Shown here: piece by piece, positions 1,214-43,437 of the stretch
Layout: each line of letters starts with the position of its first letter
How positions within the stretch are numbered: position 1 is the stretch's first letter
Assembly (NCBI GenBank): GCA_022571885.1
Contig: JACZWZ010000003.1
Location: 1-47,620, forward strand
DNA length: 47,620 bases
Reading direction: 5' to 3'
DNA from: Acidobacteriota bacterium
GTDB lineage: Bacteria > Actinomycetota > Acidimicrobiia > Spongiisociales > UBA11373
Program-made: the position numbers and the translations under genes
Notes under the pieces: model-generated
Databases searched by the model: none
What the model was told of the DNA's origin: nothing
What the model saw: only the letters and a program-made list of their open reading frames with translations

Positions 1214-1300
1214 GTAGAGGCCGCCCGTTTCCCGTTTCCCGTTTCCCGTTTCCCGACTGGCTGTGTCGGGCATCGGGCATCGGGTATTCGGCATCGGATC
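1214..1300. repeat. Composite heptamer element (short subfamily): CCCGTTT x4-5 followed by TCGGGCA-type x5
   Basis: 1224-1258 holds four perfect CCCGTTT copies plus CCCGACT. 1266-1300 holds TCGGGCA TCGGGCA TCGGGTA TTCGGCA TCGGATC. The arms are partly complementary through their CCCG/CGGG cores. It lies in the divergent intergenic region. Confidence 0.9.
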
Positions 1301-12071: not shown

Positions 12072-12135
12072 TCCTTAGTCCTTAGTCAAGACGGTCGCGC
12101 GTTCTGGCTGGAGACTGGGGACTGGAGACTCAGTT
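12069..12135. repeat. Heptamer arrays: TAGTCCT x3 (12069-12089), then GTTCTGG CTGGAGA CTGGGGA CTGGAGA (12101-12128)
   Basis: Read directly. The first TAG is the pepN stop codon. The right end overlaps the stop of the convergent LCP gene. Confidence 0.9.
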
Positions 12136-13641
12136 GCCGGTACCGCAGATGTCGCCGAGCGGAGGAATGTTGAGGGCCTCCGAGGCGGTAGCTGGGTCGG
12201 ATGACAGCACCTTGGCGACCGTTTCGCGGATGACGGTGACGATCGGGATCCAATAGCCCTCGGGGTTCCTGGCGACATAGGCGGTCCCGGTGCCGACAAG
12301 TTCGGGAGCGTTCGGCATGAATCGGACCGAGACGATGGCGGTGGTGTCCACCGATGCGGCGAGTTCGATGAAGTCGGGCCACGCCGGGACGCGGATGTCG
12401 GTGCGGATGCTGCTTTGAATCGCCGGCACCAGACCCGGAAGCGCCCAGATGAGCGCGGTCGGGTTCGCCTGCGCTGCCAGAGCCTCCAGCACACACCGTT
12501 GTCGTCCCATCCGGTTGTAGTCGTCGGTTCCACGCCGTACTCGGGCGTAGGAGAGTGTCTCCTCGCCGTTCATCGAATAGGTGCCGGGCGGGAAGAGGAC
12601 CGGGATCTCGTCCCCGCCGGGCCGGGTGTACTGCTCATCTTCGACCCGGGCCGTGACCGTGATCGTGAGTTCGCCGAGGGCGTCGATGATCGACACGAAA
12701 CCCAGGAGATCGACCAGCGCGTAGTTGTGGATCTCGATGCCGTAGAGGTGGCTGACCAAGTCCATGACCGCGGTTGCTCCTGAGTTGTTGCCGCCCTGGA
12801 ACAACTCAGGATGATCCAGGCCGTATTGGTAGATGGTGTTCGCCAGTTCCGGATAACAATGACATTCCCACACGTCGTAGGCCGGATGATCGGGTGGAAT
12901 CGGCAGCTCGATCTGGTTGCGGGGGAGCTGCAACATGGCGGTGGCACCGGTCACCGGGTCGACCGATACCACGATGATGGTGTCGGTGCGGAGCCCGGGT
13001 CGATCCGGCGCGGCGTCGCCACCGAGCAGCAGGACGTTGAGGCGTCGTTCGGCCAGCGGTGGCAACGTCGTCGTGGTCGTCGGCGCCGGGACGGTCGTAG
13101 TGGTCGGGGGGGCGCTGGTGCCCGTCGTCGTGGTGGGTTCGAGGGTTGTCGTGGTGGAGGGCAGCTCGGTAGTCGTGGTGGCCGCCTGATTCGGATCTAC
13201 CGAGTAGTCGTAGGTGAGGAGGTCATAGAGCGCCAGGTTGCGCTGGGCGGCCCAAGCGTGCGGCGCTGCGGCCGCGGTCGCCAAGATTGCGATCACAGCG
13301 ACCAAGCCGACTACCCGCTTGCCGGCGAACCCGCCTCCGGCGAGCCAGAAGGCGTCGAGCCCTGCCAGGATTCGAAAGACGAACACCGCAGCATTGGCCA
13401 CCACCAAGAGCAGTAGGTAGCCGGGGTGTTCGAAGAAGGGCCGGGCAACGTCCAAGGCGAAGGACTTCCCGCTGCCGAAGAAGATCAGGATCACGATCAC
13501 GGTTGCCGGAAGGGCCGCAATCACCGTGATGCCGATGAGCACGGCGGCTCTTCGTCGATGCCCGGCGTACCAATGCCCCAGACCGGGAATCAGGCCGCTG
13601 AGAACCGCCGCGATCGTCGGAGACAGACGGCGCTTCGTCAC
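12130..13641 (-). CDS. LytR-CpsA-Psr (LCP) family cell-envelope protein
   Basis: 503 aa with N-terminal TM segments, a Thr/Pro-rich linker, and the LCP core LLLGGDAAPDRPGLRTDTIIVVSVDPVTGATAMLQLPRN. Confidence 0.8.
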   Translation of the reverse strand: MTKRRLSPTIAAVLSGLIPGLGHWYAGHRRRAAVLIGITVIAALPATVIVILIFFGSGKSFALDVARPFFEHPGYLLLLVVANAAVFVFRILAGLDAFWLAGGGFAGKRVVGLVAVIAILATAAAAPHAWAAQRNLALYDLLTYDYSVDPNQAATTTTELPSTTTTLEPTTTTGTSAPPTTTTVPAPTTTTTLPPLAERRLNVLLLGGDAAPDRPGLRTDTIIVVSVDPVTGATAMLQLPRNQIELPIPPDHPAYDVWECHCYPELANTIYQYGLDHPELFQGGNNSGATAVMDLVSHLYGIEIHNYALVDLLGFVSIIDALGELTITVTARVEDEQYTRPGGDEIPVLFPPGTYSMNGEETLSYARVRRGTDDYNRMGRQRCVLEALAAQANPTALIWALPGLVPAIQSSIRTDIRVPAWPDFIELAASVDTTAIVSVRFMPNAPELVGTGTAYVARNPEGYWIPIVTVIRETVAKVLSSDPATASEALNIPPLGDICGTGN

Positions 13642-14961: not shown

Positions 14962-16899
14962 ATGCGACCCGAAGATCTCACCGCCTATGCCTCAATGTCC
15001 GATCCCCAGATCCACCCGGACGGCACCCGGATCGCGTTCGTGGTGTCCCGGATGAACTTCGACCAGGATCGCTACGACCGGTCGATTTGGCTGTGGGATG
15101 GCTCCGAGGCACGAGTGTTCACCCACGGCCCGGTGGACAGTCGACCTCGCTGGTCCCCGGACGGCGAGAGCCTCGCCTTCCTGCGGGCTTCCGGCGAGCC
15201 CGGTGAGCACGGCCAGGTGGCGGTGATCGGCGCCGCAGGCGGCGAAGCGACCGTCGTGACCGATTTCGAGATCGGGGCATCGGAGGTCGAGTGGTCGCCA
15301 GGTGGGGCGCAGCTGGCGGTTCTCGGCCTGCGATGGGAGGAGGGGTGGGCCGACCTCGACGACGACGAGCGAGGCAAGACGCCCCGCCGGATTTCGGGCC
15401 CGTTGTGGAGGTTCGACGACAAGGGATACCTCCACGACAGACGCACAATCGTCTACCTGGTCGACCCATCCGGTGGGGACCCGGTTGCGCTCACCGATGA
15501 TGCGTATCGGGACAGCGGCATCGTTTGGCGACGTGACGGTTCGGCGATCGGATTCCTGAGCGCCCGACACGATCGGGCCGGGTTCGACTCGGCCAACCAA
15601 GCATGGGAGGTTTCCATCGGTGGCGGAGCGCCGACTGCCATCGTGGGGCCGGGCATGTGGTCGGTGCTGTCATACAGTCCGGCGGACGTTCCGCATCTGA
15701 TCGGACTCGAGACTCCCGGCGCATACCCGGGAGTCAATGGCCTATTTCGGATCGATGATGGTGCACTCACTCGTCTTGCCGGCGACTACGACCGCAACCT
15801 GTTGTCGCCGGGACCGACAACCACACCGCCGGGACCGCAGTGGCTGTCCGATGGTTCGTGCCGGCTCATCTCCGAGGATCGCGGCACCCACCCGGTGATC
15901 GAGGTGGCTCCACACGGCGCTTGGCATGAGGTTACGGGTGGTAATCGATTGGTCACCGGTATGACCACGCGATCCGACGGCAGCGCAATGGCGCTGGTAT
16001 CGACATCTGTTGCCGATCCCGGGGAGCTTGCCTGGTTCGAAGACGGCGTCGAGACCACGTTGACCGAGATGAACGCATCTTTCCGATCCGAGGCCGGACT
16101 GGTCGAACCGGAACATTTCGTGGCGACTGTGGGCGATATCGACCTCGACGTGTGGGTCTTCTTGCCGCCGGGCGATGAGCCGGTCCCGGTTCTGTTCAAC
16201 ATCCACGGCGGCCCCGCCACCCAGTACGGCTGGGGCTTCTTTGACGAGTTCCAGGTCTACGTCGGCGCCGGGTACGGAGTCGTCGCCACCAACCCGCGTG
16301 GATCGTCTGGAAGGGGGAACGATTTCGTTCGGGCCCCGGTGGAAGTCTGGGGGAAGGACCGCCCGCAGGATATGGAGGATCTGCTCGGAGCATTTGAGGC
16401 CGCCATGGATCGGTTCGACCGGCTCGACCCTGACCGGGCCGGAATCATGGGAGGCTCCTACGGCGGCCTGATGACGGCGAGGATCCTCGCCGTGGACGAC
16501 CGTTGGAAGAGTGCGGTTCCCGAACGCGGCCTCTACAACTTCATGTCGTTCGCCGGCACCTCGGACATCGGCTTCACCTTCCCCCGCAGGTACCTGGGGG
16601 AGTGGCAGTACGACGACTGGGCAGTCTTGTGGGAGGCGAGCCCGCTGAAGCGGGCCCATCTGATCACGACACCTTGTCTGATCCTTCACTCAGAGTCCGA
16701 TCTCAGGTGTCCAATGGAACAAGGCGAGCAGCTGTTCTCCGTTCTGATCGACAACGGCGTGGAGGCGGAGCTGCTTCGATTCCCCGGCGAGGGTCATGAG
16801 TTGTCCCGCGGCGGCAAGCCCAAGCAACGCCGTATCCGCTTCGAGGCGATCCTCGAATGGCACGCCCGGCATCTGGGACCAGTAGCCGGTAACCAGTAA
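14962..16899 (+). CDS. S9 family serine peptidase (prolyl oligopeptidase / acylaminoacyl-peptidase type)
   Basis: It has an N-terminal beta-propeller-like region and a C-terminal hydrolase domain with the GGSYGG nucleophile elbow. ATG at 14962. Confidence 0.85.
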   Translation: MRPEDLTAYASMSDPQIHPDGTRIAFVVSRMNFDQDRYDRSIWLWDGSEARVFTHGPVDSRPRWSPDGESLAFLRASGEPGEHGQVAVIGAAGGEATVVTDFEIGASEVEWSPGGAQLAVLGLRWEEGWADLDDDERGKTPRRISGPLWRFDDKGYLHDRRTIVYLVDPSGGDPVALTDDAYRDSGIVWRRDGSAIGFLSARHDRAGFDSANQAWEVSIGGGAPTAIVGPGMWSVLSYSPADVPHLIGLETPGAYPGVNGLFRIDDGALTRLAGDYDRNLLSPGPTTTPPGPQWLSDGSCRLISEDRGTHPVIEVAPHGAWHEVTGGNRLVTGMTTRSDGSAMALVSTSVADPGELAWFEDGVETTLTEMNASFRSEAGLVEPEHFVATVGDIDLDVWVFLPPGDEPVPVLFNIHGGPATQYGWGFFDEFQVYVGAGYGVVATNPRGSSGRGNDFVRAPVEVWGKDRPQDMEDLLGAFEAAMDRFDRLDPDRAGIMGGSYGGLMTARILAVDDRWKSAVPERGLYNFMSFAGTSDIGFTFPRRYLGEWQYDDWAVLWEASPLKRAHLITTPCLILHSESDLRCPMEQGEQLFSVLIDNGVEAELLRFPGEGHELSRGGKPKQRRIRFEAILEWHARHLGPVAGNQ

Positions 16900-16959
16900 C
16901 CAGTAACCAGTAACCAGTAACCAGTAACCAGTAACCAGTAACCAGTAACCAGTAACCAG
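16879..16959 (+). repeat. Heptamer array CCAGTAA: 9 perfect copies (16893-16955) plus 2 degenerate leading copies
   Basis: Read directly as CCAGTAG CCGGTAA (CCAGTAA)x9 CCAGAGC. The peptidase stop codon at 16897-16899 is the TAA of the first perfect copy. Confidence 0.95.
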
Positions 16960-17105
16960 AGCGTTCCCAGTTCTGGCTGGGTACTGGATACTCGACATCC
17001 GAATAGATGGGCCACCCAGCAGACGGCCTGTGATGCACTCTTCTCGACTTGTCCCCGGCGAGCGGCACGGGGAGGATGTGGCTGCCAACGCGGAAAGGAA
17101 ACTAC

Positions 17106-22097: not shown

Positions 22098-22169
22098 TCG
22101 GGGGTGGTGTAATTGGCAACACACTTGGTTCTGGTCCAAGCATTGAGGGTTCGAGTCCTTCCCCCCGAG
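22098..22169 (+). tRNA. tRNA-Gln (anticodon CTG)
   Basis: Cloverleaf folded by hand. Acceptor is TCGGGGG/CCCCCGA. Anticodon arm is CTTGG-TTCTGGT-CCAAG. T arm is GAGGG-TTCGAGT-CCTTC. No encoded CCA. Confidence 0.85.
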
Positions 22170-22193
22170 CGAAGGTGGTACAACTACCGCCGC

Positions 22194-22266
22194 GGCCCCG
22201 TCGTCTAGCGGCCTAGGACGCTGGCCTCTCAAGCCAGTAACGCCGGTTCAAATCCGGTCGGGGCTA
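22194..22266 (+). tRNA. tRNA-Glu (anticodon CTC)
   Basis: Acceptor is GGCCCCG/CGGGGCT. The D region TCGTCTAGCGGCCTAGGAC is typical of tRNA-Glu. Anticodon arm is CTGGC-CTCTCAA-GCCAG. T arm is GCCGG-TTCAAAT-CCGGT. Confidence 0.85.
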
Positions 22267-22273
22267 CAAAGAA

Positions 22274-22342
22274 GTCATTAGTCGTTAGTCATTAGCAATT
22301 AGCAGGACTCTTCCTAAGGACTAATGACCAAGAACTAATGAC
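22274..22342. repeat. Inverted heptamer arrays: GTCATTA GTCGTTA GTCATTA GCAATTA, then CTAATGAC x2 on the other arm
   Basis: Read directly at 22274-22301, 22321-22328 and 22335-22342. It also holds CTAAGGA (the reverse complement of TCCTTAG) at 22314-22320. It lies between tRNA-Glu and the convergent SDR gene. Confidence 0.85.
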
Positions 22343-23140: not shown

Positions 23141-24361
23141 GTGGCAGAGATCAGACTCGAGCAAATCGGCAAGATCTACGACGATGAGACCCGTGCCGTC
23201 GGGGAGGTAGACCTCACCATCGAGGATGGCGAGTTTCTGGTGCTCGTCGGCCCTTCGGGCTGTGGCAAGTCGACGATTCTGCGCATGATCGCCGGGCTCG
23301 AGGAAATTTCCGAGGGCAAGATGTTCATCGGTGACACCGTTGTCAACGATGTCGCGTCCAAGGATCGCGACATCGCGATGGTCTTCCAGAATTACGCCTT
23401 GTATCCGCACATGTCGGTGTACGACAACATGGCGTTCGGCCTCAAGCTTCGCAAGATGGACAAGAAAGAGATCGATCGCAGGGTGCAGAACGCGGCAGAG
23501 ACGCTCGAGATCACCGAGTTCCTGGAACGCAGGCCCAAGGCTCTCTCCGGTGGCCAGCGGCAAAGGGTCGCGATGGGTCGGGCGATCGTCCGCGAGCCCA
23601 AGGCCTTCTTGATGGATGAGCCGCTGTCCAACCTCGATGCCAAGTTGCGGGTTCAGATGCGGACCGAGTTGAGGCTTCTACACGCTCGGCTGGTGACGAC
23701 GACGGTGTATGTGACTCACGATCAGGTCGAAGCGATGACGCTCGGCCAACGGGTGGCGGTGCTCAAGCGGGTCAGCAAGGCGCGGCCGGACAACCTTCAG
23801 CAGGTCGCTCCGCCGTCAGAACTGTTCCAGAACCCGAGGAATTTGTTTGTGGCCGGGTTCATCGGAAGCCCGTCGATGAACCTGGTGGTGGGTCATCTCG
23901 AAGGTTCCGACGGCTCCGTCACTGCGGTGTTCGGTGGCCTTCGGCTCTCGGTGGACCGGCGGGCGCTCGATCGTCACCCAGGTATCGAGAACTACATGAA
24001 CAAGGATCTTGTCATCGGTATTCGTCCCGGCGACTTCGAGCACGTCAGCATGGCCGGCGACGGTGCTGATCGGACGATGTCGGTCACCGTCGAAGTGGCC
24101 GAGGTGCTTGGTTCCGAGACGTTCGTTCACTATCAGGTCGATGTGCCTCCGGTCATCACGCCCGACATCGAGGAGGTGCTCCAAGAGCGGGGCGCCGATG
24201 TGGCCTCGTTGGGGCAGACCTCCAGGTTCACGTCGCGGATTTCCTCCGACGTGTCGGTGAGTCTGGGCGATACCGTGGATCTTGTGGTGGATGTGGCCAA
24301 GTTCCACTTCTTCGATCTCGCCACCGGCGATCGCGTCGGATACCGGGAAGGGAACTATTAG
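23141..24361 (+). CDS. msiK: Sugar ABC transporter ATP-binding protein, MsiK/MalK/UgpC type, without adjacent permease genes
   Basis: Walker A GPSGCGKST, signature LSGGQRQRV, Walker B FLMDEPLSNLD, and a C-terminal regulatory (TOBE-like) domain. GTG at 23141 follows GGGAGGA. The gene symbol is by analogy only. Confidence 0.75.
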   Translation: MAEIRLEQIGKIYDDETRAVGEVDLTIEDGEFLVLVGPSGCGKSTILRMIAGLEEISEGKMFIGDTVVNDVASKDRDIAMVFQNYALYPHMSVYDNMAFGLKLRKMDKKEIDRRVQNAAETLEITEFLERRPKALSGGQRQRVAMGRAIVREPKAFLMDEPLSNLDAKLRVQMRTELRLLHARLVTTTVYVTHDQVEAMTLGQRVAVLKRVSKARPDNLQQVAPPSELFQNPRNLFVAGFIGSPSMNLVVGHLEGSDGSVTAVFGGLRLSVDRRALDRHPGIENYMNKDLVIGIRPGDFEHVSMAGDGADRTMSVTVEVAEVLGSETFVHYQVDVPPVITPDIEEVLQERGADVASLGQTSRFTSRISSDVSVSLGDTVDLVVDVAKFHFFDLATGDRVGYREGNY

Positions 24362-24365
24362 GCGT

Positions 24366-24539
24366 GTCGATCGGGAACCGGTCGTGGCCTGTCGGCCCGA
24401 CGCGGGGTTTCGCATGGCGACGCTTCCCGTTGCCCGTATCCCGTTTCCCGTATGGTGTTGCTGGAGCTGTCGTGGCGCTCGAAGCTGCCGGGACCTGATT
24501 CGGGAGACGGGGAACTGGAAGCGGGAACCGGCTTCGACC
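24366..24539 (-). repeat. Dispersed ~170-nt intergenic element, copy A (minus orientation)
   Basis: The reverse complement aligns over its full length with copies B and C. Shared blocks are GGTCGAAGCCGGTTCCCGCTTCCAGTTCCCCGT, AGCAACACCATACGGGAAACGGGATACGGG and GCGTCGGGCCGACAGG. Confidence 0.85.
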
Positions 24540-24661
24540 GACTCACACCACATATCGGCGCTGCCCCAAAGACCAGCCTGCAGCTTGGATCAGCTCGGTA
24601 GCCGGAACCCCGAACCGAAGATTTGCTATCGGGGCCATCTACCCAGGCCGGGAGTCGGCAC

Positions 24662-25249
24662 TCAGGTCAGAAATGGTGAGAGCCAGGCGCCACCGGGGAG
24701 GCCGGCGGCGGCCGAAAGATCGCCCGGAGTGTCCAATTCGATGAGCGTCTTGATGTCGATGTGCACCGTGGTGGCGAGATTCGACAGCGCGGCAAGGTGC
24801 CGATGGAATGAGCCCGGACCGTAGGACAGCCGAATCCGACCGTGGGAGCCGAGCAGGTTGGTCCCACCGTCGCGTGAAGGGGCGATGACCGACCCTCCGG
24901 CGGCGAGAGTGGCTCGAGCATCGGTCATGGTGGCCCCGTCGAGCAGTGGCAGATCGCCGTGCACGATGATCCAGGGTCCATCGCACTGCTCGATCGCCAC
25001 CCGGCACGCGGCATCGAGTCCCTGCGATGGGTCGGGAATCACGATCGCAGAATGTTGCACGGCCCATGCTGCGACCGCCTCGTCACCGGCCACGATCATG
25101 ATGTCGAGGCCGCCATCGGCGCACGCTCGAACGACATGGCCGGCGGTCGTCCGAGCGAGCGACGATCGTTGCTGTTGATCGAGTACCGGGGCGAGACGGC
25201 CCTTGGCGACGGCGAACCCCTTGAGCGGGATGACTGCAATGGGATTCAT
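24662..25249 (-). CDS. cofC: 2-phospho-L-lactate (phosphoenolpyruvate) guanylyltransferase, F420 biosynthesis
   Basis: IAVIPLKGFAVAKGRL, GDLPLL and SRDGGTNLL...YGPGSFHRH match the CofC/FbiD pattern. 195 aa. Confidence 0.75.
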   Translation of the reverse strand: MNPIAVIPLKGFAVAKGRLAPVLDQQQRSSLARTTAGHVVRACADGGLDIMIVAGDEAVAAWAVQHSAIVIPDPSQGLDAACRVAIEQCDGPWIIVHGDLPLLDGATMTDARATLAAGGSVIAPSRDGGTNLLGSHGRIRLSYGPGSFHRHLAALSNLATTVHIDIKTLIELDTPGDLSAAAGLPGGAWLSPFLT

Positions 25250-25295
25250 GTGGTCGGATCAGCATAAGAGGGCAGGCGGATCGCCGGTGTGGATC

Positions 25296-25462
25296 GGTCG
25301 AAGTCGTTTCCCGTTTCCAGATCTCCGTTTCCGTCAGTCCCCCAGTGGCGTAGAGCGCCACCACAACACTCGCACCACCATTCGGGAAACTGGCACGGCA
25401 AACCTCGCCCGGCCGAACCCAGCGTCGCGTCAACACTTCGCCACCGGGTCGGTATCCGCTAT
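25296..25462 (+). repeat. Dispersed ~170-nt intergenic element, copy B
   Basis: Shared blocks are GGTCGAAGTCGTTTCCCGTTTCCAG, CACCATTCGGGAAAC and CCAGCGTCGCGTCAACA...GCCACCGGGTCGGTATCCGCT. The element ends about 78 nt upstream of the pyk start. Confidence 0.85.
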
Positions 25463-25539
25463 GCCCCCAGAGCCGGTCGCCGCCAAACTGGTGCGAGATG
25501 CTCATCAGGGCCGTGGGCGGGGCCGGGTACAGTGATGAT

Positions 25540-27006
25540 GTGTCGCGTCGGACCAAGATCATCGCCACCCTGGGGCCCGCCAGCGCCGATCCGGAGATCA
25601 TTTCCCAGATGGTCGATGCCGGCATGGATGTGGCCCGGCTCAACTTTTCGCACGGCAGCTACGAGTCGCACGCGGGGCTGATCGCGGCGGTACGAGCTGC
25701 AGCATCGGACCATGATCGGGCGGTCGCCGTGATGCAGGACATCCAGGGGCCGCGCATCCGGGTCGGTAGGTTTCCGGACACTGCTATCCAGATCCAGACC
25801 GGATCCGAGGTTCGACTGGCACCCGGTGACGGAGAGGGCAGCGCCTCACTGGTGTACGTCCAACATCTTGGAGAGGTGACTCTCGAGGTGGGGGCGCCGG
25901 TCGTGATGAACGACGGTCTGATCCAACTCGAAGTCACTTCAGTGGACGGCGAGACCGCCGTCGCCAGGGTGGTCGAGGGCGGCATTCTCAGCAATCACAA
26001 GAGCGTGGCGTTCCCAGGCGCCGCGCTCGACCTCCCGGCGGTCACACAGAAGGATGCTGCCGATCTGGCATTCGGCCTGGAGCAGGGTGTCGACATAGTC
26101 GCCGCCTCCTTCGTCACTTCCGGTGACGACATCGCCCGCGTCAAATCGATCGTGGGGGATCTACCCGTCATTGCCAAGATCGAGCGGGTTGCCGCCTATG
26201 AGAATCTCGACGCCATCCTCTCGGTGGCTGATGGAGCGATGGTGGCCCGAGGAGATCTCGGAGTGGAACTCGGGATCGCGCCGTTGCCACGGGCTCAGAA
26301 GGACATCATTTATCGAACCAACGAGGCCTCCCGCATTTCGATAACGGCGACCGAGATGCTGGAGTCGATGACCTCGTCGCCGCGGCCGACGCGGGCCGAG
26401 GTGACCGATGTGGCCAATGCAGTGCTGGATGGCACCGACGCGGTGATGCTTTCCACCGAGACTGCCGCCGGCGGCTATCCGGTACGAGCGGTGGCGATGA
26501 TGGCTGCAGTCTGCTTGGAAGCCGAGGCCAGCCCGGGTTATCCGCAGAGCACGGCCTCCGTCTCTGGTTTTGAGCGAAGCTTTGCTTCGGCAATAGCCCA
26601 CGCCGCGTCCGACGCCGCAGCCAATCTCGAACTGTCCATGATCGTTGCCTTTACCGAGAGCGGATTGACGGCCCGGCTGGTTGCCAACTACCGCCCGGCC
26701 GCCTCGATCATCGCGTTCACACCCCACGAGTCGACGTTCAATCGCCTGGCGCTGGTGTGGGGGGTGACGCCACTGCGCTTTCCAATCCTCGATTCGACCG
26801 ACACGATGATCGAGGAGGCCGGGCGACGCCTTCTAGAGCGGGGGCTGGTCGAGCCGGGGGATTGGGTGGCCATGGTCGCCGGTATACCTCCCAATCAGCA
26901 AGCCTCGACCAACCTGCTCAAGTTGCATGTCATCGGCTCAGGTTCGACCGGAGCTCCGGGAGGCTCGAAGCAGACCCCTAGGATCATCGGATCCGACGAG
27001 GACTGA
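25540..27006 (+). CDS. pyk: Pyruvate kinase
   Basis: SRRTKIIATLGPAS, NFSHG and MVARGDLGVE motifs. GTG at 25540 is chosen as start; the ORF opens at 25498. Confidence 0.9.
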   Translation: MSRRTKIIATLGPASADPEIISQMVDAGMDVARLNFSHGSYESHAGLIAAVRAAASDHDRAVAVMQDIQGPRIRVGRFPDTAIQIQTGSEVRLAPGDGEGSASLVYVQHLGEVTLEVGAPVVMNDGLIQLEVTSVDGETAVARVVEGGILSNHKSVAFPGAALDLPAVTQKDAADLAFGLEQGVDIVAASFVTSGDDIARVKSIVGDLPVIAKIERVAAYENLDAILSVADGAMVARGDLGVELGIAPLPRAQKDIIYRTNEASRISITATEMLESMTSSPRPTRAEVTDVANAVLDGTDAVMLSTETAAGGYPVRAVAMMAAVCLEAEASPGYPQSTASVSGFERSFASAIAHAASDAAANLELSMIVAFTESGLTARLVANYRPAASIIAFTPHESTFNRLALVWGVTPLRFPILDSTDTMIEEAGRRLLERGLVEPGDWVAMVAGIPPNQQASTNLLKLHVIGSGSTGAPGGSKQTPRIIGSDED

Positions 27007-27008
27007 GT

Positions 27009-27302
27009 ATGGGTCAGCCGATAACCGTGTTGAGTACCACCGTGGAAGCCGGGGTGGTTGCGTTCCACACCGATCGTGCCATAACCGGCCAGGACGGCGC
27101 CCGGTTCTCCTCCGGCGACGACGCGGCCGAGGCCGGAACGATCCCGGGCGCCCTTGCCTCGAAGCTCTTCACGGCCGACGAGGCGATCAACCATGTGTTC
27201 ATCGCCTCGAATCAAGTCGTCGTCGGGCGCGCCGACGGCTGGGATGAAGCATCGCTGGCGATGGCCGCCGAGATGGTCACCACGTTCTTCGTCTTCTATT
27301 AG
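27009..27302 (+). CDS. Small protein resembling the Nfu/NifU N-terminal domain
   Basis: 97 aa. LASKLFTADEAINHVFIASNQVVVGRADGWDEASLAMAAEMVTTFF parallels the Nfu_N pattern (LA..LF...gV..VF.....ItV.K....W). This is from memory, not a search. Confidence 0.45.
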   Translation: MGQPITVLSTTVEAGVVAFHTDRAITGQDGARFSSGDDAAEAGTIPGALASKLFTADEAINHVFIASNQVVVGRADGWDEASLAMAAEMVTTFFVFY

Positions 27303-27337
27303 TCCTTAGAGCCCGTGCCGATAGGTGGCGTGGGATT

Positions 27338-27510
27338 GGTCGAGGCCGTTTCCCGCTTCCAGTTCCCCGTTCCCCGAAATTCAGCCCCAGTAGATGCAGC
27401 CTACGACTGCTCTAGCAACACCATTCGTGAAACGGGAGACGGGAGAGCGTGAGTGTCGCCCTTCGAGTCCAGCGTCGGGCCGACAGGGTGCCACCGGCTC
27501 GCTATCCGCT
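27338..27510 (+). repeat. Dispersed ~170-nt intergenic element, copy C
   Basis: Shared blocks are GGTCGAGGCCGTTTCCCGCTTCCAGTTCCCCGTTCCCCGAA, AGCAACACCATTCGTGAAACGGGAGACGGG and CCAGCGTCGGGCCGACAGGGTGCCACCGGCTCGCTATCCGCT. Confidence 0.85.
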
Positions 27511-27540
27511 GACCCTCTTGGTCCTCGGTCCCGGATCTGA

Positions 27541-27575
27541 CCTCTGACTGGTGACTGGTGACTGGTGACCGGTGA
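27541..27575 (+). repeat. Heptamer array CTGGTGA x3 perfect, flanked by CCTCTGA and CCGGTGA
   Basis: Read directly. It ends 4 nt from the stop of the minus-strand VanW gene. Confidence 0.9.
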
Positions 27576-27579
27576 ATCT

Positions 27580-29604
27580 CTACGCCAGCTCGCCCAGCCT
27601 GACGGTCACTGTGGTTCCCCGGTCTACCCAGGTACCGGGAGGGATGCTCTGTGCTCGCACGGTGTTCTCCGGAGGAGCGGCGACGGGGAACGGCTCGCCG
27701 ATTGCGATCACCAGGCCGACGTTGTTGAGTGCGGTTGTCGCGTCCGGCTGGCTGAGGTTTCCCACCAACGGAACCTGCACCGGACATTCGATCGAGGCGT
27801 CGTACTGGATGTGGTCTTCCGGTAGCTCGCATGGGTGAACCTCATAGATGATCGAGTGAGGGACATAGGTCCAGCTCCATACGTCTACCTCCTGGGTGCC
27901 GTCGGCGAAGGTAATGGTCCTGGTGTCGGTCGCACTGAAACCCGGCGTACCCTCGTCGGTGAGCTCCTTGTCGCCTGGATTGAGATCCTGGTTCGGCTTC
28001 AGGTACTCCTCGGGATCGGTGAAGTTGAACTTGGATGAGATGGCCCCTTCGATTTCGGCCCCCTCCAGGTCGCCGAACATCGTCACCGTGATTCGAGTGT
28101 CGGTGGCTTCGGTCTTGATGTAGATCGCGTGGTTGGTGGAGTTCTTGAATTCCACATCGGGGTCCGGGAATCCGAGCGTCGCTTCTCGTACCACCGGGTA
28201 TCTAGAGAACGAAAGCGTATGCGGCTTGTGAAACACGTCTTCGAGCCCCGACCAGTACACCGCATTCCACAGGGTGGTTGCGAACTGGCTCACGCCGCCT
28301 CCGATGTTGGCAGGGTGGTCGCAGCAGTACACCACCGGGCCGATGATGGCGCCGGCCTTCCGGTAGCCATCCTCGAGCGTTCGCTTGCCGACGTGATCGT
28401 TGAGGCTGAAGGTCTCGCCGGGGAGGATGATCGCTCCGTCGACCTCTGCTGCGATCCGCTTGATGTTGATGATCCGGTTCAGGTTCTTCGTGTCACCGCA
28501 GCACGAGTAGTAGGTCTCGGCTGAGTAGAGCAGGTCTCGGATTCCCAGCGCCTCGGCGTCCTCCGTACTGAAGTCCGCCTCGCGTCCCTCCCGGATCGGC
28601 AGCGGTGCGGTCCGAGTCACCGATGTGGCCGCTCGGTACACCGCATCTGGAAGCTTGCCGTCGTCGATGAGAAGGGCGTTGTATCCGGGAAGGATCAGAG
28701 GAATGTCGTCGGGTCGGATGACCACCTGGGCATCGATCGGGTCGGTTTCTACTTCCTGGCGGATCGGGTTGAGATATCGGGCCAACGGGCCGAGCTGGAA
28801 GAACAACTCGATTTCCGGTGCGAGCGCGGTCCCCACCTGGCGGCTCGATAGTGCCTCGGCCAATACGCTCACCGGGAAGGTGACCGACGCCTCGGGCAGA
28901 ATTCGGCCGAGTGTTATCGGACGTGCGACGAGTTCCTCGGCCCGCTCGACCGCGAGATCTACCAGCTCTTTGGTCACGATCGGAACCCGGAACTCGGTGA
29001 CGCCGCTGACGGTGCCTCGATCCTGTGCGAGGACTTGCGCTTCGATGAGGTCGGCGGTGGCCTCGTAGTCGAGTCCGGTTCCCGGTTGGGGATAGATGGC
29101 GGTGACCTCGGTGCCGGTGACGCTGATTCCACCGTCGGTGGGAGGGTTGTTGATCGCCTGTGGCTCCCAGCTCTTGAGAATGAGGATGAGAGCTTGGCGG
29201 TCAAAGGTGGGTTCGAATGAGATGTCCTTGGAGCCCTCGCCGAAGTGGCCCAGCCACCACCCCATCTCGCTCATGAAGCCTCCGTCGCGACCCCGGGCGA
29301 GGGCCTCATCGAGGATGGCCGCGGTATCGATGTAATAACTGAGTTCGCTGGGGAGCAAGGTGAATGTCGCGTCTTCGATGACGACCCTGATTGGATCACT
29401 CGCCAATCGTGCTTCGACCCCATCGATGACGGCGATCGCTGCCTGCTCGTCGAGTCCGCCGAGGTCGACACCGGCAACCGTTACGCGGCCTAATACCTCA
29501 CCGTCGTTGCTCGCACGGTCCATGGCGAACACGGCCGAAACCCACAGCAGCAACGCGGTGGGTATGGCGGCAGCGATGATCGCGATTCGCAGGCTTGGAG
29601 GCAT
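27580..29604 (-). CDS. VanW domain protein with N-terminal TM anchor and C-terminal PASTA domain
   Basis: Starts at MPPSLRIAIIAAAIPTALLLWVSAVF. The VanW-like core is GYRKAGAIIGPVVYCCDHPANIGGGVSQFATTLWNAVYWSG. The C-terminal sequence VPLVGNLSQPDATTALNNVGLVIAIGE...PGTWVDRGTTVTVRLG is PASTA-like. Confidence 0.7.
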   Translation of the reverse strand: MPPSLRIAIIAAAIPTALLLWVSAVFAMDRASNDGEVLGRVTVAGVDLGGLDEQAAIAVIDGVEARLASDPIRVVIEDATFTLLPSELSYYIDTAAILDEALARGRDGGFMSEMGWWLGHFGEGSKDISFEPTFDRQALILILKSWEPQAINNPPTDGGISVTGTEVTAIYPQPGTGLDYEATADLIEAQVLAQDRGTVSGVTEFRVPIVTKELVDLAVERAEELVARPITLGRILPEASVTFPVSVLAEALSSRQVGTALAPEIELFFQLGPLARYLNPIRQEVETDPIDAQVVIRPDDIPLILPGYNALLIDDGKLPDAVYRAATSVTRTAPLPIREGREADFSTEDAEALGIRDLLYSAETYYSCCGDTKNLNRIINIKRIAAEVDGAIILPGETFSLNDHVGKRTLEDGYRKAGAIIGPVVYCCDHPANIGGGVSQFATTLWNAVYWSGLEDVFHKPHTLSFSRYPVVREATLGFPDPDVEFKNSTNHAIYIKTEATDTRITVTMFGDLEGAEIEGAISSKFNFTDPEEYLKPNQDLNPGDKELTDEGTPGFSATDTRTITFADGTQEVDVWSWTYVPHSIIYEVHPCELPEDHIQYDASIECPVQVPLVGNLSQPDATTALNNVGLVIAIGEPFPVAAPPENTVRAQSIPPGTWVDRGTTVTVRLGELA

Positions 29605-32769: not shown

Positions 32770-32910
32770 GGGCTCAACGTAGGGCCGAGGTGTGACAGGA
32801 ACGAGGGGGCGTCCGTGTCCAGTAGACCTTCTGTATCGGGGGCCGTTCCGTTCCAGGCCGAGCCTTGCTTCAGTGGGTCGACGCGCCTCCCGGACTCACG
32901 TCGGTGTCCC

Positions 32911-33009
32911 GGTCGAGGTTCCCGATTCCCGAATCCCGACGCAGCGGATCTCGATCGGGCATCGGACATCGAGTATCTGGCATCCGGTACCGGGTGTCGG
33001 GAATCGTCC
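32911..33009. repeat. Composite heptamer element (short subfamily): GGTCGAGG + (NTTCCCG)x3, then ATCGGGC-type x8
   Basis: 32918-32938 holds GTTCCCG ATTCCCG AATCCCG. 32954-33009 holds ATCGGGC ATCGGAC ATCGAGT ATCTGGC ATCCGGT ACCGGGT GTCGGGA ATCGTCC. It lies between divergent operons. Confidence 0.9.
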
Positions 33010-36608: not shown

Positions 36609-37517
36609 TTACACCGCCACGATCAGAAGGCTGCGCGACTCGGGTCGAATGGTGATCGAGGAGGCTCGACCAAGAAGCTCGCCATCTGCTTCGATCCAGG
36701 ATGAAGGCTCGGACGTGATTTCCAGCCGTTCGAAGCCTTCCCAGATCTTCACCCCGGGCACCCGCGCCAAATCACGCTTGGCACCTGCCCGGGCGAGTAG
36801 GTAGAACAGGCGCAGGGTTGAGACCCGAGTGATCACAGCTGCGATCGGCTTTGGGCCGGTTCCGAGGGTGAGTGGGATCCGCCCGAGGTAGGTGAAGCGG
36901 TCGTGGACCTGTGTCAGCACTGCCACCGCATCTGCCGTGCTGGTGCCGTCGGTGACCCGAAGGGTCGGAAGCCGATCCCGGAAGGTTCTCGCCACCCTGG
37001 AGGTGCTGCGGGCGTAGTGGAGTGTGCCGAATCCGATCTTGGAGAGAGGGCGCCGTTCCGACTCCTTGATTACTTCGGCGTCGAAGCCGATTCCGGCGGC
37101 GAAGGTGGCGATGTGGCCACGAGTGGATTCGCCTATGCCCTCGGTGATGTGGAGAGTCGGCACCGCTCGGGTCCCAATGGCGTCGGCCAGGAACTCAGCG
37201 GCGTCGCGCGGCTTACGGGGCAAGCGGATGATGCGGCGTAAGACGTTGCTGGTTCCGGCGGGGATGATCCCGAGGGCGGCACTGGTGCCGATTACGGCGT
37301 TGGCCACTTCGTGGACAACACCGTCGCCGCCCATGGCCACGACGACGTCGAAGCCATCGGCTGCGGCGGCAGCCGATTCGGTGCGGGCCTGGGCCGGGCC
37401 GTTGGGCCAAATGGCGGTCACATGGAATCCGCGTTCGAGGATCTCGACCACGTCGCGGTGGAGCGGCGCGGTGAAGCCGGATGCGGCCGGGTTGGCGACG
37501 AGGAGGAGTCGGCGCAT
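36609..37517 (-). CDS. Diacylglycerol/lipid kinase catalytic-domain protein
   Basis: Starts at MRRLLLVANPAASG, with AMGGDGVVHEV (GGDG motif). The longer 416-aa ORF has an Arg/Pro-rich, non-protein-like N-terminus. Confidence 0.75.
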   Translation of the reverse strand: MRRLLLVANPAASGFTAPLHRDVVEILERGFHVTAIWPNGPAQARTESAAAAADGFDVVVAMGGDGVVHEVANAVIGTSAALGIIPAGTSNVLRRIIRLPRKPRDAAEFLADAIGTRAVPTLHITEGIGESTRGHIATFAAGIGFDAEVIKESERRPLSKIGFGTLHYARSTSRVARTFRDRLPTLRVTDGTSTADAVAVLTQVHDRFTYLGRIPLTLGTGPKPIAAVITRVSTLRLFYLLARAGAKRDLARVPGVKIWEGFERLEITSEPSSWIEADGELLGRASSITIRPESRSLLIVAV

Positions 37518-37678
37518 TCGTGGAGCGTACCGGCGGTCTTGGGTCATGCATGGCGTCGCCGTCTCCATCGAAGTTCGGGTTACTTGCGGGGCCGTGGCTG
37601 GGGGAGGAGGGTCGACCGGTGGCTGTGAGGCTTTGTTGCGTCGAGGCCGGCCCGGGCAGAGGGCAGTAACCTCCAGTC

Positions 37679-38302
37679 GTGAGTCGGTACCGGGATCGTT
37701 TAGACGCCGGGTGTTCGCTCGGAGGCTTCCTGACTCATCTCCATGGGTCCACACCGCTGGTGCTGGGGATCCCCCGTGGCGGGGTGGCGATCGCGGCAGA
37801 AGTGGCCGACCTGCTTGAGGGTGAGATCGGGTTCGTGCTCGCCACCAAGGTCGGCGCACCCTGGAGCAGGGAGTTGGCGATCGGAGCGGTCGCTCCCGAT
37901 GGGGTGGCTCTGCTCGACGAGCCGATCATCAAGAGTATGGGCCTGGATCAGACGGAGGTGGATGCCGAGGTCGAGCGTTCGCTGGTGGAGCTTCAACGTC
38001 GGCAGGCAGTCTTCGGTGGAGATGCCCCCCAAGTGGCCGGACGGGTAGTGATTGTCGCCGACGACGGTGTGGCCACCGGAGCCACCTTGCGGGCGGCGTT
38101 GGCCTACGTGCGCCGGCTCGGCCCGGACCGTTTGGTGTGTGCGGTTCCGGTGGGGCCGCCGGCGACAATCGACCAGCTGGCATATGAGGTGGACGAGATC
38201 GTGTGTCCGATGCAGCCGGATCGGCTGCGCGCCGTCGGGGAGTGGTACGACGCCTTCCCTCAATGTTCCGATGCTGAGGTGCTGGAACTGCTGGGCCGGT
38301 AG
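37679..38302 (+). CDS. Phosphoribosyltransferase family protein
   Basis: YRDRLDAG...VLGIPRGGVAIAAEVA and the PRPP-binding motif VVIVADDGVATGATL. Confidence 0.75.
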   Translation: MSRYRDRLDAGCSLGGFLTHLHGSTPLVLGIPRGGVAIAAEVADLLEGEIGFVLATKVGAPWSRELAIGAVAPDGVALLDEPIIKSMGLDQTEVDAEVERSLVELQRRQAVFGGDAPQVAGRVVIVADDGVATGATLRAALAYVRRLGPDRLVCAVPVGPPATIDQLAYEVDEIVCPMQPDRLRAVGEWYDAFPQCSDAEVLELLGR

Positions 38303-38348
38303 CCGGACTCCGGGCTTCTTGTCACACCCGCTCCGTATGGTTTCAGAC

Positions 38349-38498
38349 ATGAACACAGTCATGTTGCTATCTGCCACTCCCGCCATCGGGACGGTCGCCG
38401 ACGCAGTTGCTCTCTTGGCGGATCTGGGGGCCGAGGTCGTCGATCACTGTCCGATCGGCTGCGAGATCTGCGATCGGGTGCTCGACGCGGCTGCCTGA
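38349..38498 (+). CDS. Possible small protein (49 aa) with C-terminal CPIGCEIC motif
   Basis: ATG at 38349. About 75% G/C at third codon positions. Its leader and first codons resemble those of the DUF222-HNH gene at 42301. No homology was recognised. Confidence 0.3.
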   Translation: MNTVMLLSATPAIGTVADAVALLADLGAEVVDHCPIGCEICDRVLDAAA

Positions 38499-38531
38499 GG
38501 GTCGTTGCGGTGGCGCTGGTAGCGTCGCCGG

Positions 38532-39833
38532 GTGAATTCGCAGGTCAACCACGCCGCCGAGCAGTGGCACCCGACGCGGCTGTCGGTCGCATCCTGGGCC
38601 ACATACGACCTTGCCAACACGATCTTTGCCCTCGGCGTCGGGTCTCTCTACTTCGCTCAGTGGCTGACCGACAGCGCCGCCGACCTACCGTCGTGGTTCC
38701 AGCGGTTCGACGAGCCGGCCGACCTTGCTCTGGCGATCACTCTCGATATCGCGATGGTGATCGTGATTGTTCTCGGGCCGTGGATTGGGGCTCGGAGTGA
38801 TCATCGTGGAAGGCGGATCCCATATCTGGCGCCGATGACGGTGCTGGCGGTCGTCCCCACGTTCTTCATCGCCACGGTGGGGGTCACCGCCTCCCTCGGC
38901 CTATTCGTGATCGCGCTGGTCGGTTTCAATCTGGGTTCGGTCGTGTACGACGCGTTGCTGCCGGACGTCTCGACTCCGGCGACCGTGGGGCGGGTCTCCG
39001 GAATGGGAATCGGTGTCGGGTACATCGGATCCTTTGTTGCGGTTCTGCTCGGGGCGTTGTTACTCGACGATTACGGCGAGGCAGCGGTGTTCAAGGCCAT
39101 TGCGGTGTTGTTCCTCATCTTTGCGATCCCCACCTTCCTCTTCGTCAAAGAGCGTCCCAAGGTGGCGGAGTCGGGGCCCCCACCGTCGCTGCGAGCCAGC
39201 GCCCGCAGGCTCATTCAGGCATGGCGCCGGGCGAGGACGTACGACGGCGTCGCACGTTTTCTGGTGGGTCGGTTCCTGTACACCGACGCCGTCAACACCC
39301 TGGTCGGGGGCTTCCTCACCATCTATGTGATCGAGGAGCTCGGCTTCACCGACAGCCAGGTCCAGGGGCTGCTCGGGGTGGCCATTGTCGGAGCGATCAT
39401 CGGAGGATTCGGGGGAGGCCGCTTGGTCGACCGGCGGGGGCCGCGCTGGCTGTTGCATCGAGTTCTTTGGACCTGGATGGTCGCCATATCGTTGGGGATC
39501 GTCGCCGGCGCACTGGGTATCAGTTCGCTGATCTGGGTGCTGGGGGTTCTGGGCGGTCTGGCGCTGGGCGCGACCTGGGCGGCCGATCGGGTCTACATGC
39601 AACGAATCTCGCCCCCGCGACACCTCGGCGAGTTCTACGGCCTCTATGCAACCGTCGGGCGGTTTGCCACGATTCTGGGCCCGTTGTCGTGGGGGGTGAT
39701 CGTCTCCATCCTCGGACTTCCCAGAGAGCTTGCTTTGGGGGTACTGCTCATATTCATCGTGGCGTCCCGGATCGTGCTCCAGGGCGTCGATGACACCGTG
39801 CGTGAATGGGGCGTAGCCGACCTCCGACGGTGA
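38532..39833 (+). CDS. MFS transporter (UMF1/Atg22-like)
   Basis: 433 aa with about 12 hydrophobic segments. The start WATYDLANTIFALGVGSLYF is typical of the UMF1 family. Confidence 0.7.
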   Translation: MNSQVNHAAEQWHPTRLSVASWATYDLANTIFALGVGSLYFAQWLTDSAADLPSWFQRFDEPADLALAITLDIAMVIVIVLGPWIGARSDHRGRRIPYLAPMTVLAVVPTFFIATVGVTASLGLFVIALVGFNLGSVVYDALLPDVSTPATVGRVSGMGIGVGYIGSFVAVLLGALLLDDYGEAAVFKAIAVLFLIFAIPTFLFVKERPKVAESGPPPSLRASARRLIQAWRRARTYDGVARFLVGRFLYTDAVNTLVGGFLTIYVIEELGFTDSQVQGLLGVAIVGAIIGGFGGGRLVDRRGPRWLLHRVLWTWMVAISLGIVAGALGISSLIWVLGVLGGLALGATWAADRVYMQRISPPRHLGEFYGLYATVGRFATILGPLSWGVIVSILGLPRELALGVLLIFIVASRIVLQGVDDTVREWGVADLRR

Positions 39834-39845
39834 GAGGGAGCCTCT

Positions 39846-42327: not shown

Positions 42328-43437
42328 ATGACAGCGGTGATGACACCTCCGGCGACCGACGGGTTCCCGATGTTTTCGGAGGACCTGGTGGAGCGGTTGG
42401 TGCAGCAACGTCGTGCGGCGGCTTCGATCGAGGCCGAGTGCACTGCTCTGGTTGCCGAGATGATCCGGCGCGACATCCACGATGATCTCGGTTACCGGTC
42501 GATGACATCGCTGCTGATGGACCGTCTCGGCGTGTCGGCCGGCGTGGCTCGGGCGATGATCAGCGTCGCTACTGCGGTGGCCGACATGCCGCCCACTCTC
42601 GCCGCACTGACGTCGGGTGACCTCGATCTGGCTCGGGTGCGGTTGCTGGTCGCAGCGCGTGAGATCAACTCGACGCTGTTCGCCGATCATGAACAGACGC
42701 TGGTCGACACCATCTCCGGGCTGGGGATGCGTGATGCCGGTCGAGCGTTGGACTACTGGTCGCAGCAGGCCGCCCTCGACGTCGTCGAGCACGATGCCCA
42801 GACGGTGCGGGAACGGCGCCGTCTGCACGTATCGGTCCTGAGCGGGATGGTGCACATCGACGGTCGCCTGGATCCGGTGGCCGGTCAGGTGGTGATCACC
42901 GCTCTCAACAGCCTCACCGATTCCGCCAACCTCGATTCCGACGACGGGCGCACCGCTTCCCAGCGTCGCGCCGACGCCCTGACCGATCTGTGCCGGGATC
43001 ACCTCGACCACAACGATCTTCCGGCCCAGCGCAAGGAGCGTCCCCACGTGATGGTCCATCTCTCGCTTGAAGCGTTGGAAGGCCGGGCCGGCAATCCATG
43101 CGAGTTGGATGACACCGGTGTGATCACTCCACAGACTGCACGACAACTGGCGTGCGACGCCAAGATCACCCGCGTCATCACCCGGGGCGAGTCCCAGGTG
43201 CTCGATGTGGGGCGGGCCACCCGAGTGATCTCAACAGGTCTTCGCAGCGCTCTTGTGACCCGCGACGGCGGCTGCATCATCGACGGTTGCGGAGCTCCCC
43301 GGCGCTGGTGCGATGCGCACCACGTTGTCCACTGGGCCGACGGCGGACCGACCAGTCTCGACAACCTGGTCCTGCTGTGCGGGCGTCACCACACCTTGGT
43401 CCACGACGGCAGAGTCCGACTACCCCGGCGGGAATGA
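42328..43437 (+). CDS. DUF222 domain + HNH endonuclease (13E12-repeat-family type)
   Basis: 369 aa with a DUF222-like N-terminal two thirds. The C-terminal HNH region is CIIDGCGAPRRWCDAHHVVHWADGGPTSLDNLVLLCGRHHTLVH. Confidence 0.85.
   Translation: MTAVMTPPATDGFPMFSEDLVERLVQQRRAAASIEAECTALVAEMIRRDIHDDLGYRSMTSLLMDRLGVSAGVARAMISVATAVADMPPTLAALTSGDLDLARVRLLVAAREINSTLFADHEQTLVDTISGLGMRDAGRALDYWSQQAALDVVEHDAQTVRERRRLHVSVLSGMVHIDGRLDPVAGQVVITALNSLTDSANLDSDDGRTASQRRADALTDLCRDHLDHNDLPAQRKERPHVMVHLSLEALEGRAGNPCELDDTGVITPQTARQLACDAKITRVITRGESQVLDVGRATRVISTGLRSALVTRDGGCIIDGCGAPRRWCDAHHVVHWADGGPTSLDNLVLLCGRHHTLVHDGRVRLPRRE

Follow-up and report, generated by a model that had tools for sequence, protein, structure and literature searches.

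The first 47,620 nt of contig JACZWZ010000003.1, referred to here as the window, come from an uncultured marine-sediment member of the Acidimicrobiia and carry three copies (A, B and C) of an intergenic repeat in the neighborhood of cofC and pyk. We conclude that A, B and C are probably three independent, old insertions of a non-autonomous transposable element of ~205 nt, a MITE, short for miniature inverted-repeat transposable element. As is characteristic of MITEs, the unit is shorter than ~500 bp and without coding capacity, it ends in terminal inverted repeats (TIRs), and its copies are dispersed and present or absent at orthologous sites. It is multi-copy in the genome, relatives carry it at other loci and have empty syntenic sites, the copies diverge in a star-like fashion, and their base pairing has decayed. 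The family is new, decayed and non-coding; it belongs to an already known, ordinary kind of selfish repeat, from which only its hairpin arms of tandem 7-nt units set it apart. The original prediction, made from the sequence alone, had offered a MITE/REP-like dispersed element or a family of structured RNAs, and these observations bear out the first half of that proposal.

That A, B and C are copies of one unit is clear from several lines of evidence. The 25-nt head motif GGTCGARGYCGKTTCCCGYTTCCAG, from which the repeat was first described, occurs exactly three times in the window, at 24515–24539 on the minus strand and at 25296–25320 and 27338–27362 on the plus strand, compared to no occurrence in 100 shuffles. 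The predicted whole-length alignment was borne out, with a mean column identity of 79% over the span first proposed, and a profile hidden Markov model built from the three copies found them in the window with nhmmer E values of 6e-56 (A), 9e-51 (B) and 3e-56 (C). An independent repeat finder returned the same blocks, with B and C as direct repeats and A/B and A/C as inverted repeats. The internal landmarks are also as described earlier, namely runs of CCCG- and CGGG-centered heptamers, a central block, CACCATWCGKGAAAC and a GCGTCGSG tail. The same is true of the orientations: A and B lie inverted around cofC with their heads toward the gene, and B and C are direct repeats around pyk and a gene of 97 codons. 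Further copies exist, and the alignment holds beyond the heptamer runs, the two points on which the prediction could have failed.

Extent and anatomy of the unit

We set the ends of the unit from eight copies aligned with 60-nt flanks: A, B, C and five others, of which two (L081 and L177) represent the same locus. The ends given in the original prediction were wrong, as similarity among the eight copies continues past the proposed head for another ~28 nt and past the tail for a few nucleotides. According to this alignment and the profile matches, copy A spans 24361–24567 (minus strand, 207 nt), copy B 25268–25468 (plus strand, 201 nt) and copy C 27309–27517 (plus strand, 209 nt). Units range from 201 to 221 nt across copies, with ~205 nt being typical.

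The 219-nt family consensus is an imperfect palindrome from end to end. Its TIRs are themselves imperfect and 16–17 nt long, GAGG-N4-GCSGATAG on the left and CTATCCGC-N4-CCTC on the right; these ends are common to the copies, and ~11–12 of 15–16 positions match within a single copy. Together with GGATCGGTCG/CGACCGGTTCC, they make up the outer stem of the consensus. The unit also has an inner ‘head’ and a long inner stem, whose left arm consists of ~4 tandem heptamers (GTTTCCC, GTTTCCA, GTTCCCC and GTTTCCC) and whose right arm is a near-exact complement (CGGGAAA, CGGGAGA, CGGGCAA and CGGGAAA). The center of the unit (~50 nt) is family-specific, and an asymmetric branch of ~50 nt (GTCGCCCTGCGAG...GCGTCGGGCCGACAGG) is found on the 3′ side only. 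Arm complementarity had been put at ~70% by eye; in the family consensus the arms are close to fully complementary, and it is the individual copies that have decayed.

These parts are most completely delimited in copy C, where the left TIR (27309–27324), left arm (27348–27376), center (27377–27425), right arm (27426–27449), asymmetric tail branch (27450–27501) and right TIR (27502–27517) follow one another. In plus-strand coordinates, copy A has its right arm at 24423–24450, its center at ~24451–24500 and its left arm at 24501–24529. The left arm of copy B lies at 25306–25333; its right arm (25383–25403) is short by one heptamer plus 1–2 nt. No protein relatives of the unit were found when its six-frame translations were searched, and there were no matches either to the consensus reading frame or to a 1537-aa query in which every open frame of seven copies was joined.

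Copy A sits between the convergent genes for an ABC-transporter ATPase (ending at 24361) and cofC (24662–25249, minus strand, ending at 24662). Copy B occupies the spacer that separates the start codon of cofC (25249) from that of the divergent gene pyk (starting at 25498 or 25540 and ending at 27006), and copy C sits between the convergent 97-aa Nfu_N-like gene (27009–27302, stop codon 27300–27302), some homologues of which match Pfam Nfu_N, and a VanW/PASTA gene that ends at 27580 on the minus strand. Copy B is in a promoter/5′ position, and copies A and C are in 3′ positions. The claim that all copies are strictly intergenic holds for the copies generally but not to the letter, in that copy A shares its terminal G with the ABC-transporter gene, whose stop codon ends on that base.

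Empty sites, descent and copy number

Syntenic loci in relatives were reached via homologues of the 97-aa protein. In relative L179 (~87% nucleotide identity), the gene order is adh, ABC, an extra gene, cofC, pyk, nfu and vanW; cofC and pyk virtually abut, and nfu is separated from vanW by 33 nt. The spacer at site C measures 29–32 nt in L182 and L180/L181, and in the syntenic relatives as a group the cofC-pyk and nfu-vanW spacers measure 0–47 nt. The family profile finds no copy in loci L179, L182 and L180/L181. In block alignments, window positions 25274–25480 stand in place of 12 nt of L179 at site B, 27303–27584 in place of 47 nt at site C, and 24369–24608 in place of 1115 nt at site A. 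The extra gene of L179, lying between the ABC gene and cofC (L179:2803–3924), is a 373-aa saccharopine-dehydrogenase-like gene. Only about its first 29 nt are retained in the window, in the region 24568–24640, and copy A lies where the rest is missing, which has the look of a gene lost beside the copy.

At site C, the insertion can be read at nucleotide level (hyphens mark junctions). The empty site reads ...TATTAGCCG-TTA-GTCATTGG in L182, with CCG before TTA, and ...AGTCC-TGA-GTCCAGAC in L179, and the filled site in the window reads ...TAGTCC-TTA-(GAGCCCG...GACCCTC, 209 nt)-TTG-GTCCTCGG. Compared with the empty sites of L182, L179 and L180, the insertion point of copy C is clean, at T(T/G)A-GTC. 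Given a single T(T/G)A(G) in the relatives versus two bracketing copy C, the data point to a duplication of 3 bp (TTA/TTG) or 4 bp (TTAG/TTGG) followed by one later substitution. The putative target-site duplication would then comprise TTA at 27306–27308 on the left (TTAG with base 27309) and TTG at 27518–27520 on the right (TTGG with base 27521), the latter differing from TTA(G) by one substitution. At other ends the neighboring triplet is TTA, TAA, CTA or TCA, both in copies and in the loose-end flanks of further copies (e.g. TAA-GGGGCC, TTA-GACGC and TAA-AGGCTCAGCGG). Copy A is flanked by TTA (24358–24360) and AAA (24568–24570).

Identity to the consensus is 75–91% across copies, compared to 65–82% from copy to copy. 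Over the full unit, A and B are 65% identical, A and C 72%, and B and C 65%, while copy A is 86% identical to the consensus and copy B, the most decayed, 75%. The best partners of copy A are copies from other genomes. Each copy is thus nearer to the consensus than to any other copy, which argues that the cluster represents three separate old insertions rather than a local duplication. The divergence appears star-like, as expected of transposon copies. Integron, composite-transposon and local-duplication readings of the cluster were considered and rejected on the basis of orientation, conserved synteny and the fact that A, B and C are not one another's closest relatives. An integron attC/gene-cassette array, for example, is at odds with the mutual inversion of A and B and with the order of cofC, pyk and the nfu-like gene, which is kept in relatives without the repeats.

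To estimate copy number, we stacked contigs from sediment metagenomes on copy A at ≥80% likeness. In X2 and X3, coverage was 12–13 times genome depth at the center, 22–29 times in the arms and ∼3 times in the outer parts; against the consensus-like copy L113, it was 8–14 times at the outer left end and 3–5 times in the tail. Many other contigs that stack on the element in X2 match the host genome in depth (36–39 versus 36.8). At 85% likeness, coverage was 7–10 times genome depth in four runs taken from other studies. Overall, the core amounts to ~8–16 genome-equivalents in eight sediment metagenomes. We conclude that the species carries on the order of a dozen recognizable copies, plus further elements with arms only.

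The same locus is found at 99% identity in the NCBI metagenome-assembled genome (MAG) GCA_022561315.1 and in several ENA/Logan sediment assemblies. The copies interrupt independently made assemblies, which show gaps of 100 N there in L001, L002 and L004. Copies A, B and C are present in all eight metagenomes, which come from seven studies, and no joint skipping any of the three was seen there. A, B and C are thus fixed in every population sampled.

A pattern scan of public genome contigs returned 92 stretches, nearly all of them chance matches in other phyla; real copies occurred only in the Acidimicrobiia MAGs SCS8bin.7 and SCS3bin.8. SCS8bin.7, which represents a related species, has two full-length copies, one between a sepF/yggT-side gene and ileS (L026) and the other (L081) flanked by genes for a tRNA methyltransferase and for an F420H2 quinone-reductase-like protein. 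The coding flank of L081 is 87% identical to positions 36974–39833 of the window, and the element itself is at a non-syntenic place. Synteny with the window stops at 39845, leaving no comparable orthologous empty site for this copy. Among 80 stretches from a scan of metagenomes, three were real copies (L113, L139 and L177). A scan of viral contigs found no copies, and BLAST against a plasmid collection gave no match.

Mode of spread and alternative explanations

Such a unit would be spread by a transposase encoded elsewhere, which would bind its ends and cut and paste it in trans. The targets would be T(T/A)A(G)-type sites just past stop codons, often within or beside heptamer arrays, and insertion would duplicate 3–4 bp of target; inserted copies would not be maintained and would decay. 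We infer the transposase family, the duplication size and the cut-and-paste mode. An IS5-family partner, of the IS1031 or IS5 group, plausibly fits best, judging from the GAG/GGG ends and the TNA/YTAR-like flanks. Members of the IS5 family encode a DDE transposase and have ends that begin with GAG/GG. In the ISfinder family table, the IS5 group has a 4-bp YTAR target, and a GAG or ‘GAG/Ga/g’ end rule is given. Elements of the IS1031 group insert at TNA and generate a 3-bp repeat (PMC12016507).

Several observations weigh against the interpretation of A, B and C as MITE insertions. A search of the window, the 189 loci and the plasmid collection turned up neither an autonomous element nor a transposase bounded by such ends, and no transposase gene was found near any copy in the examined loci or in the window. 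Conservation and repetition are higher in the internal heptamer arms than at the outermost ends, contrary to what a textbook MITE shows. In L027, these arms surround another center and have other flanks, implying that module recombination or another arm-spreading route also operates. Identical tri- or tetranucleotides on both sides are seen in none of seven copies, and in the 4-bp reading, with boundaries chosen post hoc, the flanks match at 57% of positions. With non-identical flanks in every copy, target duplication is suggested, not established, and it is the single resolved site, C, that suggests it. The ‘empty’ relative already has TAA-GAGGGCGCGTCCGTGGGGCGCCC-AGG (GAGGGCGCG...GGCGCCC) at site B, and this sequence may be a footprint or remnant with both termini or may be a pre-existing small palindrome. 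The location of three of about a dozen copies within 3.2 kb is not accounted for by the MITE interpretation. Finally, all copies are old and, in the populations examined, fixed, and hence present-day mobility is not implied. We note here that the only mobile-element-like gene in the window is an open reading frame (ORF) at 42328–43437 encoding DUF222 plus an HNH endonuclease, for which no link to the repeats was seen. Actinobacterial proteins of the ‘13E12 repeat’ type, often encoded in several copies, have this architecture.

Alternatively, the repeat could be a hairpin-type element moved as single-stranded DNA by a tyrosine (Y1/HUH) transposase, either as a REPIN-like doublet with a RAYT or as an IS200/IS605-derived palindrome-associated element, inserting 3′ of a TTAG/TTAA-like tetranucleotide without duplication. 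The internal hairpin rather than the extreme ends would then be the most conserved and repeated part, as observed. Also consistent are the T-T-A-R motif abutting the ends, the fact that the two flanks are identical in no copy, and the extragenic, clustered placement of the copies, reminiscent of BIME/REPIN clusters. On the other hand, the extra TTG at site C relative to the empty sites fits duplication, and the ends are mutually inverted, unlike those of IS200/IS605. No GTAG/GTGG-headed REP of 20–40 nt is evident, copies number about a dozen rather than hundreds, and no Y1 transposase gene occurs among the examined loci. We consider this route unlikely, though still in contention. A strict REP-like or REPIN-RAYT reading is not indicated, the unit being ~205 nt with a distinct center and tail and occurring in about a dozen copies.

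To assess the other half of the original prediction, a family of structured RNAs, we folded the consensus and the copies in silico. The consensus folds to −106 kcal/mol on the given strand and −116 on the opposite strand, and single copies fold to −74 to −96 and −82 to −117 kcal/mol, respectively. Copy A is more stable than shuffles (z = −3.65), whereas B and C are no better (z = −0.46 and −1.2). In an RNAalifold consensus of seven copies, the covariation term is unfavorable (+5.6 kcal/mol), just 3 of the 56 pairs have any double change, and pairing is lost in roughly two out of three changed cells. An Rfam scan, one of the checks that had been proposed, gave no family match to the copies at gathering thresholds or at E ≤ 10; the former yielded only two tRNAs and the latter chance-level matches, such as BTE at 16 bits against a cut-off of 45. 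A consensus scan found no promoter-like or terminator-like site and no T-tract in or beside the copies. The matches in four metatranscriptome runs were all short and fell on conserved coding motifs of other organisms, except that one 193-nt contig from these runs, whose nature as DNA or RNA is uncertain, covers 24287–24479. These data do not support selection for RNA structure in the element. The pattern is that of a palindromic transposon decaying after insertion, rather than of a maintained RNA.

Small RNAs or cis-regulatory leaders/trailers would nonetheless account for the long predicted hairpin, for the z value of copy A, and for the fact that every copy is in sense to one neighboring gene. 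They would not be expected to fold like shuffles, as B and C do, to fold equally well or better on the opposite strand, to change mostly by breaking pairs under an unfavorable covariation term, or to leave Rfam without a match, and we regard this explanation as very improbable. The repeat might instead be a host-encoded functional element kept because it is useful, with its four direct and four inverted GTTTCCC heptads acting as sites for a DNA- or RNA-binding protein or as bidirectional terminator/insulator hairpins. This idea draws on the heptamer arms, which are the best conserved blocks and recur with other centers (in L027) and at 1216–1300 and 32905–32990, on the heptamer-array hairpins at many gene 3′ ends in the window, and on the fixation of A, B and C in all sampled populations. 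Yet close relatives lack all three copies at the same sites, the arm of copy B is partly lost, pairing in the copies is reduced relative to the consensus, and compensatory changes are almost absent. Moreover, no T-tract or terminator-like site is present, and with B in a promoter/5′ position and A and C in 3′ positions there is no single positional logic. We judge a host function of this sort to be quite unlikely.

Heptamer arrays and comparison with known systems

The family is mosaic, with modules shuffled within it. A short relative at 32905–32990 (plus strand) combines a GGTCGAGG head, three TTCCCGA heptamers, the CAGCGGAT motif and then CGGGCAT-type heptamers. This stretch is itself dispersed, being 85% identical to L026:6747–6814, and a scaffold gap falls on it in L001. 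Another, at 1216–1300 (plus strand), consists of a GAGGCCGCC terminus-like motif, four perfect GTTTCCC units, an 11-nt loop and ~4 CGGGCAT heptamers, which form a heptamer-array hairpin. Between them, these two relatives and L026:6747–6814 reshuffle the head, arm and CAGCGGAT modules. In SCS3bin.8, L027:2733–2846 encloses a different center between identical heptamer arms, in which even the TTTCCAG variant recurs, and is flanked by CCATCGG and CAAGGGC arrays, and L052:1888–1940 has the left arm joined straight to the end motif. Directly after the right end of the full copy in L026 stands a second, solitary left-end motif (AGAGGGGGCGCCGATAGGTGCCACC, L026:3086–3112), which could be a partial tandem copy or a remnant.

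Heptamer arrays are not confined to the element. Perfect short-period tandem arrays in the window have a period of 7 only, with none of period 4–6 or 8–12. There are ~12 such period-7 arrays, all of them intergenic, and most take the form of an array followed by its imperfect complement at a gene 3′ end, that is, a hairpin (e.g. TTAGTCC/GGAGACT, TAACCAG x11.7/CTGGGTA and TTAGTCA/TAATGAC). Heptamer arrays lie at 763–789, 1224–1297, 12063–12140, 16878–16990, 22273–22342, 27521–27580 and 32917–32985. With TAG, TAA or TGA inside many of the heptamer units, every one of the three frames meets a stop codon. The array at 22273–22342 immediately follows tandem genes for tRNA-Gln(CTG) and tRNA-Glu(CTC) (22098–22267). 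Just 3′ of copy C, a TGACTGG x4 array (27540–27575) reaches 15–50 times genome depth in the eight sediment metagenomes, indicating that it is far more repeated than the element itself, either in the genome or in the community. In relatives, CTTAGTC/GTTAGTC x4 follows the ABC stop codon (L179:2781–2830), CTCCAGA x4 follows the nfu stop codon (L179:6389–6435), and GTCAGAC/TTCAGAC heptamers occur at L182:1380–1411. Orthologous spacers thus hold different heptamers, which suggests that the arrays turn over fast while their position is kept. The L113 copy lies inside a (GGGGTTA)n array, and another copy lies in a TTAGTCC array.

It is conceivable, though we would put little weight on it, that heptamer arrays, together with their complements, are actively written at gene ends in this lineage, and that the MITE family is bound up with this process. 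The arrays might be reiterated junctions or footprints of the element, given that TTAGGGG, TTAGTCC and TNACTGG resemble a TNA target plus four terminal bases (3 + 4 = 7). Alternatively, one heptad-binding protein might recognize both the arrays and the arms of the element. If such a process exists, the arrays would double as all-frame stop signals and terminator hairpins, and it would help to explain mechanistically the heptamer repeats (STRR, TAACTGA) that have long puzzled workers on other phyla.

MITE-type elements have thus settled in the narrow gaps between genes of an uncultured, streamlined lineage of actinobacteria. The element gives a cause for contig breaks and scaffold gaps in marine-sediment Acidimicrobiia MAGs, its consensus can be used to mask or trace the family, and its copies serve as dated markers of insertion and of one neighboring gene loss. 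The copies likely lengthen untranslated regions and the cofC/pyk promoter region and supply substrates for deletion. The insertions lengthened the divergent cofC/pyk control region about four-fold, and regulation of a glycolytic gene could have changed. The less ordinary aspect is the link of a mobile element to lineage-wide heptamer-array hairpins. Two further features of the window may be mentioned. At 1–160, beside a DUF1684 gene, 2.9 copies of a 55-nt unit follow one another at 95% identity, either as a true tandem repeat or as an effect of the contig end. WD40 repeats and a zf-UBP zinc finger, an unusual pairing in a bacterium, occur together in an ORF at 46694–47617 that is cut off by the window end.

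Of known systems, bacterial MITEs derived from IS5-family elements (IS1031 and IS5 groups) are similar in being small, non-coding and multi-copy, with GAG/GGG TIRs and TTA/TAA(G) flanks, and one site here fits their 3–4-bp duplication. They differ in that here no partner insertion sequence was found, duplication is suggested at one site only, the arms are better conserved than the ends, and the unit is mosaic with a one-sided extra branch. Their eukaryotic counterparts are the Tourist/mPing MITEs of PIF/Harbinger. Other intergenic elements that form imperfect palindromes over their whole length are ERIC/IRU, of 127 bp in enterobacteria, and the Correia elements of Neisseria; these measure 100–200 nt, have tens of copies and indel size variants, and are co-transcribed with neighboring genes. 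The element described here has no sequence similarity to them and resides in another host phylum, their stems are not tandem heptamers, and Correia elements duplicate TA.

REP/BIME/REPIN sequences (PMC3116915) are likewise extragenic, hairpin-forming, clustered, found in mixed orientations and composed as mosaics of reusable modules. However, REPs are 20–40 nt long with a GTAG-type head, occur in hundreds of copies and have a flanking RAYT gene, none of which was seen in the loci examined here. Heptamer repeats are known from Cyanobacteria (STRR), and TAACTGA repeats from Beggiatoaceae, Cyanobacteria and Bacteroidetes, their function and origin being unexplained (PMC4679880); we found no report of such heptamer repeats in Acidimicrobiia in the literature. 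The arrays described here resemble STRR and TAACTGA (PMC4679880) in being built of 7-nt units, confined to intergenic regions and abundant in the lineage, with units that often contain a stop triplet. STRR and TAACTGA are mostly plain direct arrays, often located just upstream of start codons, whereas the arrays described here form both arms of hairpins at gene 3′ ends and also serve as the arms of a mobile element.

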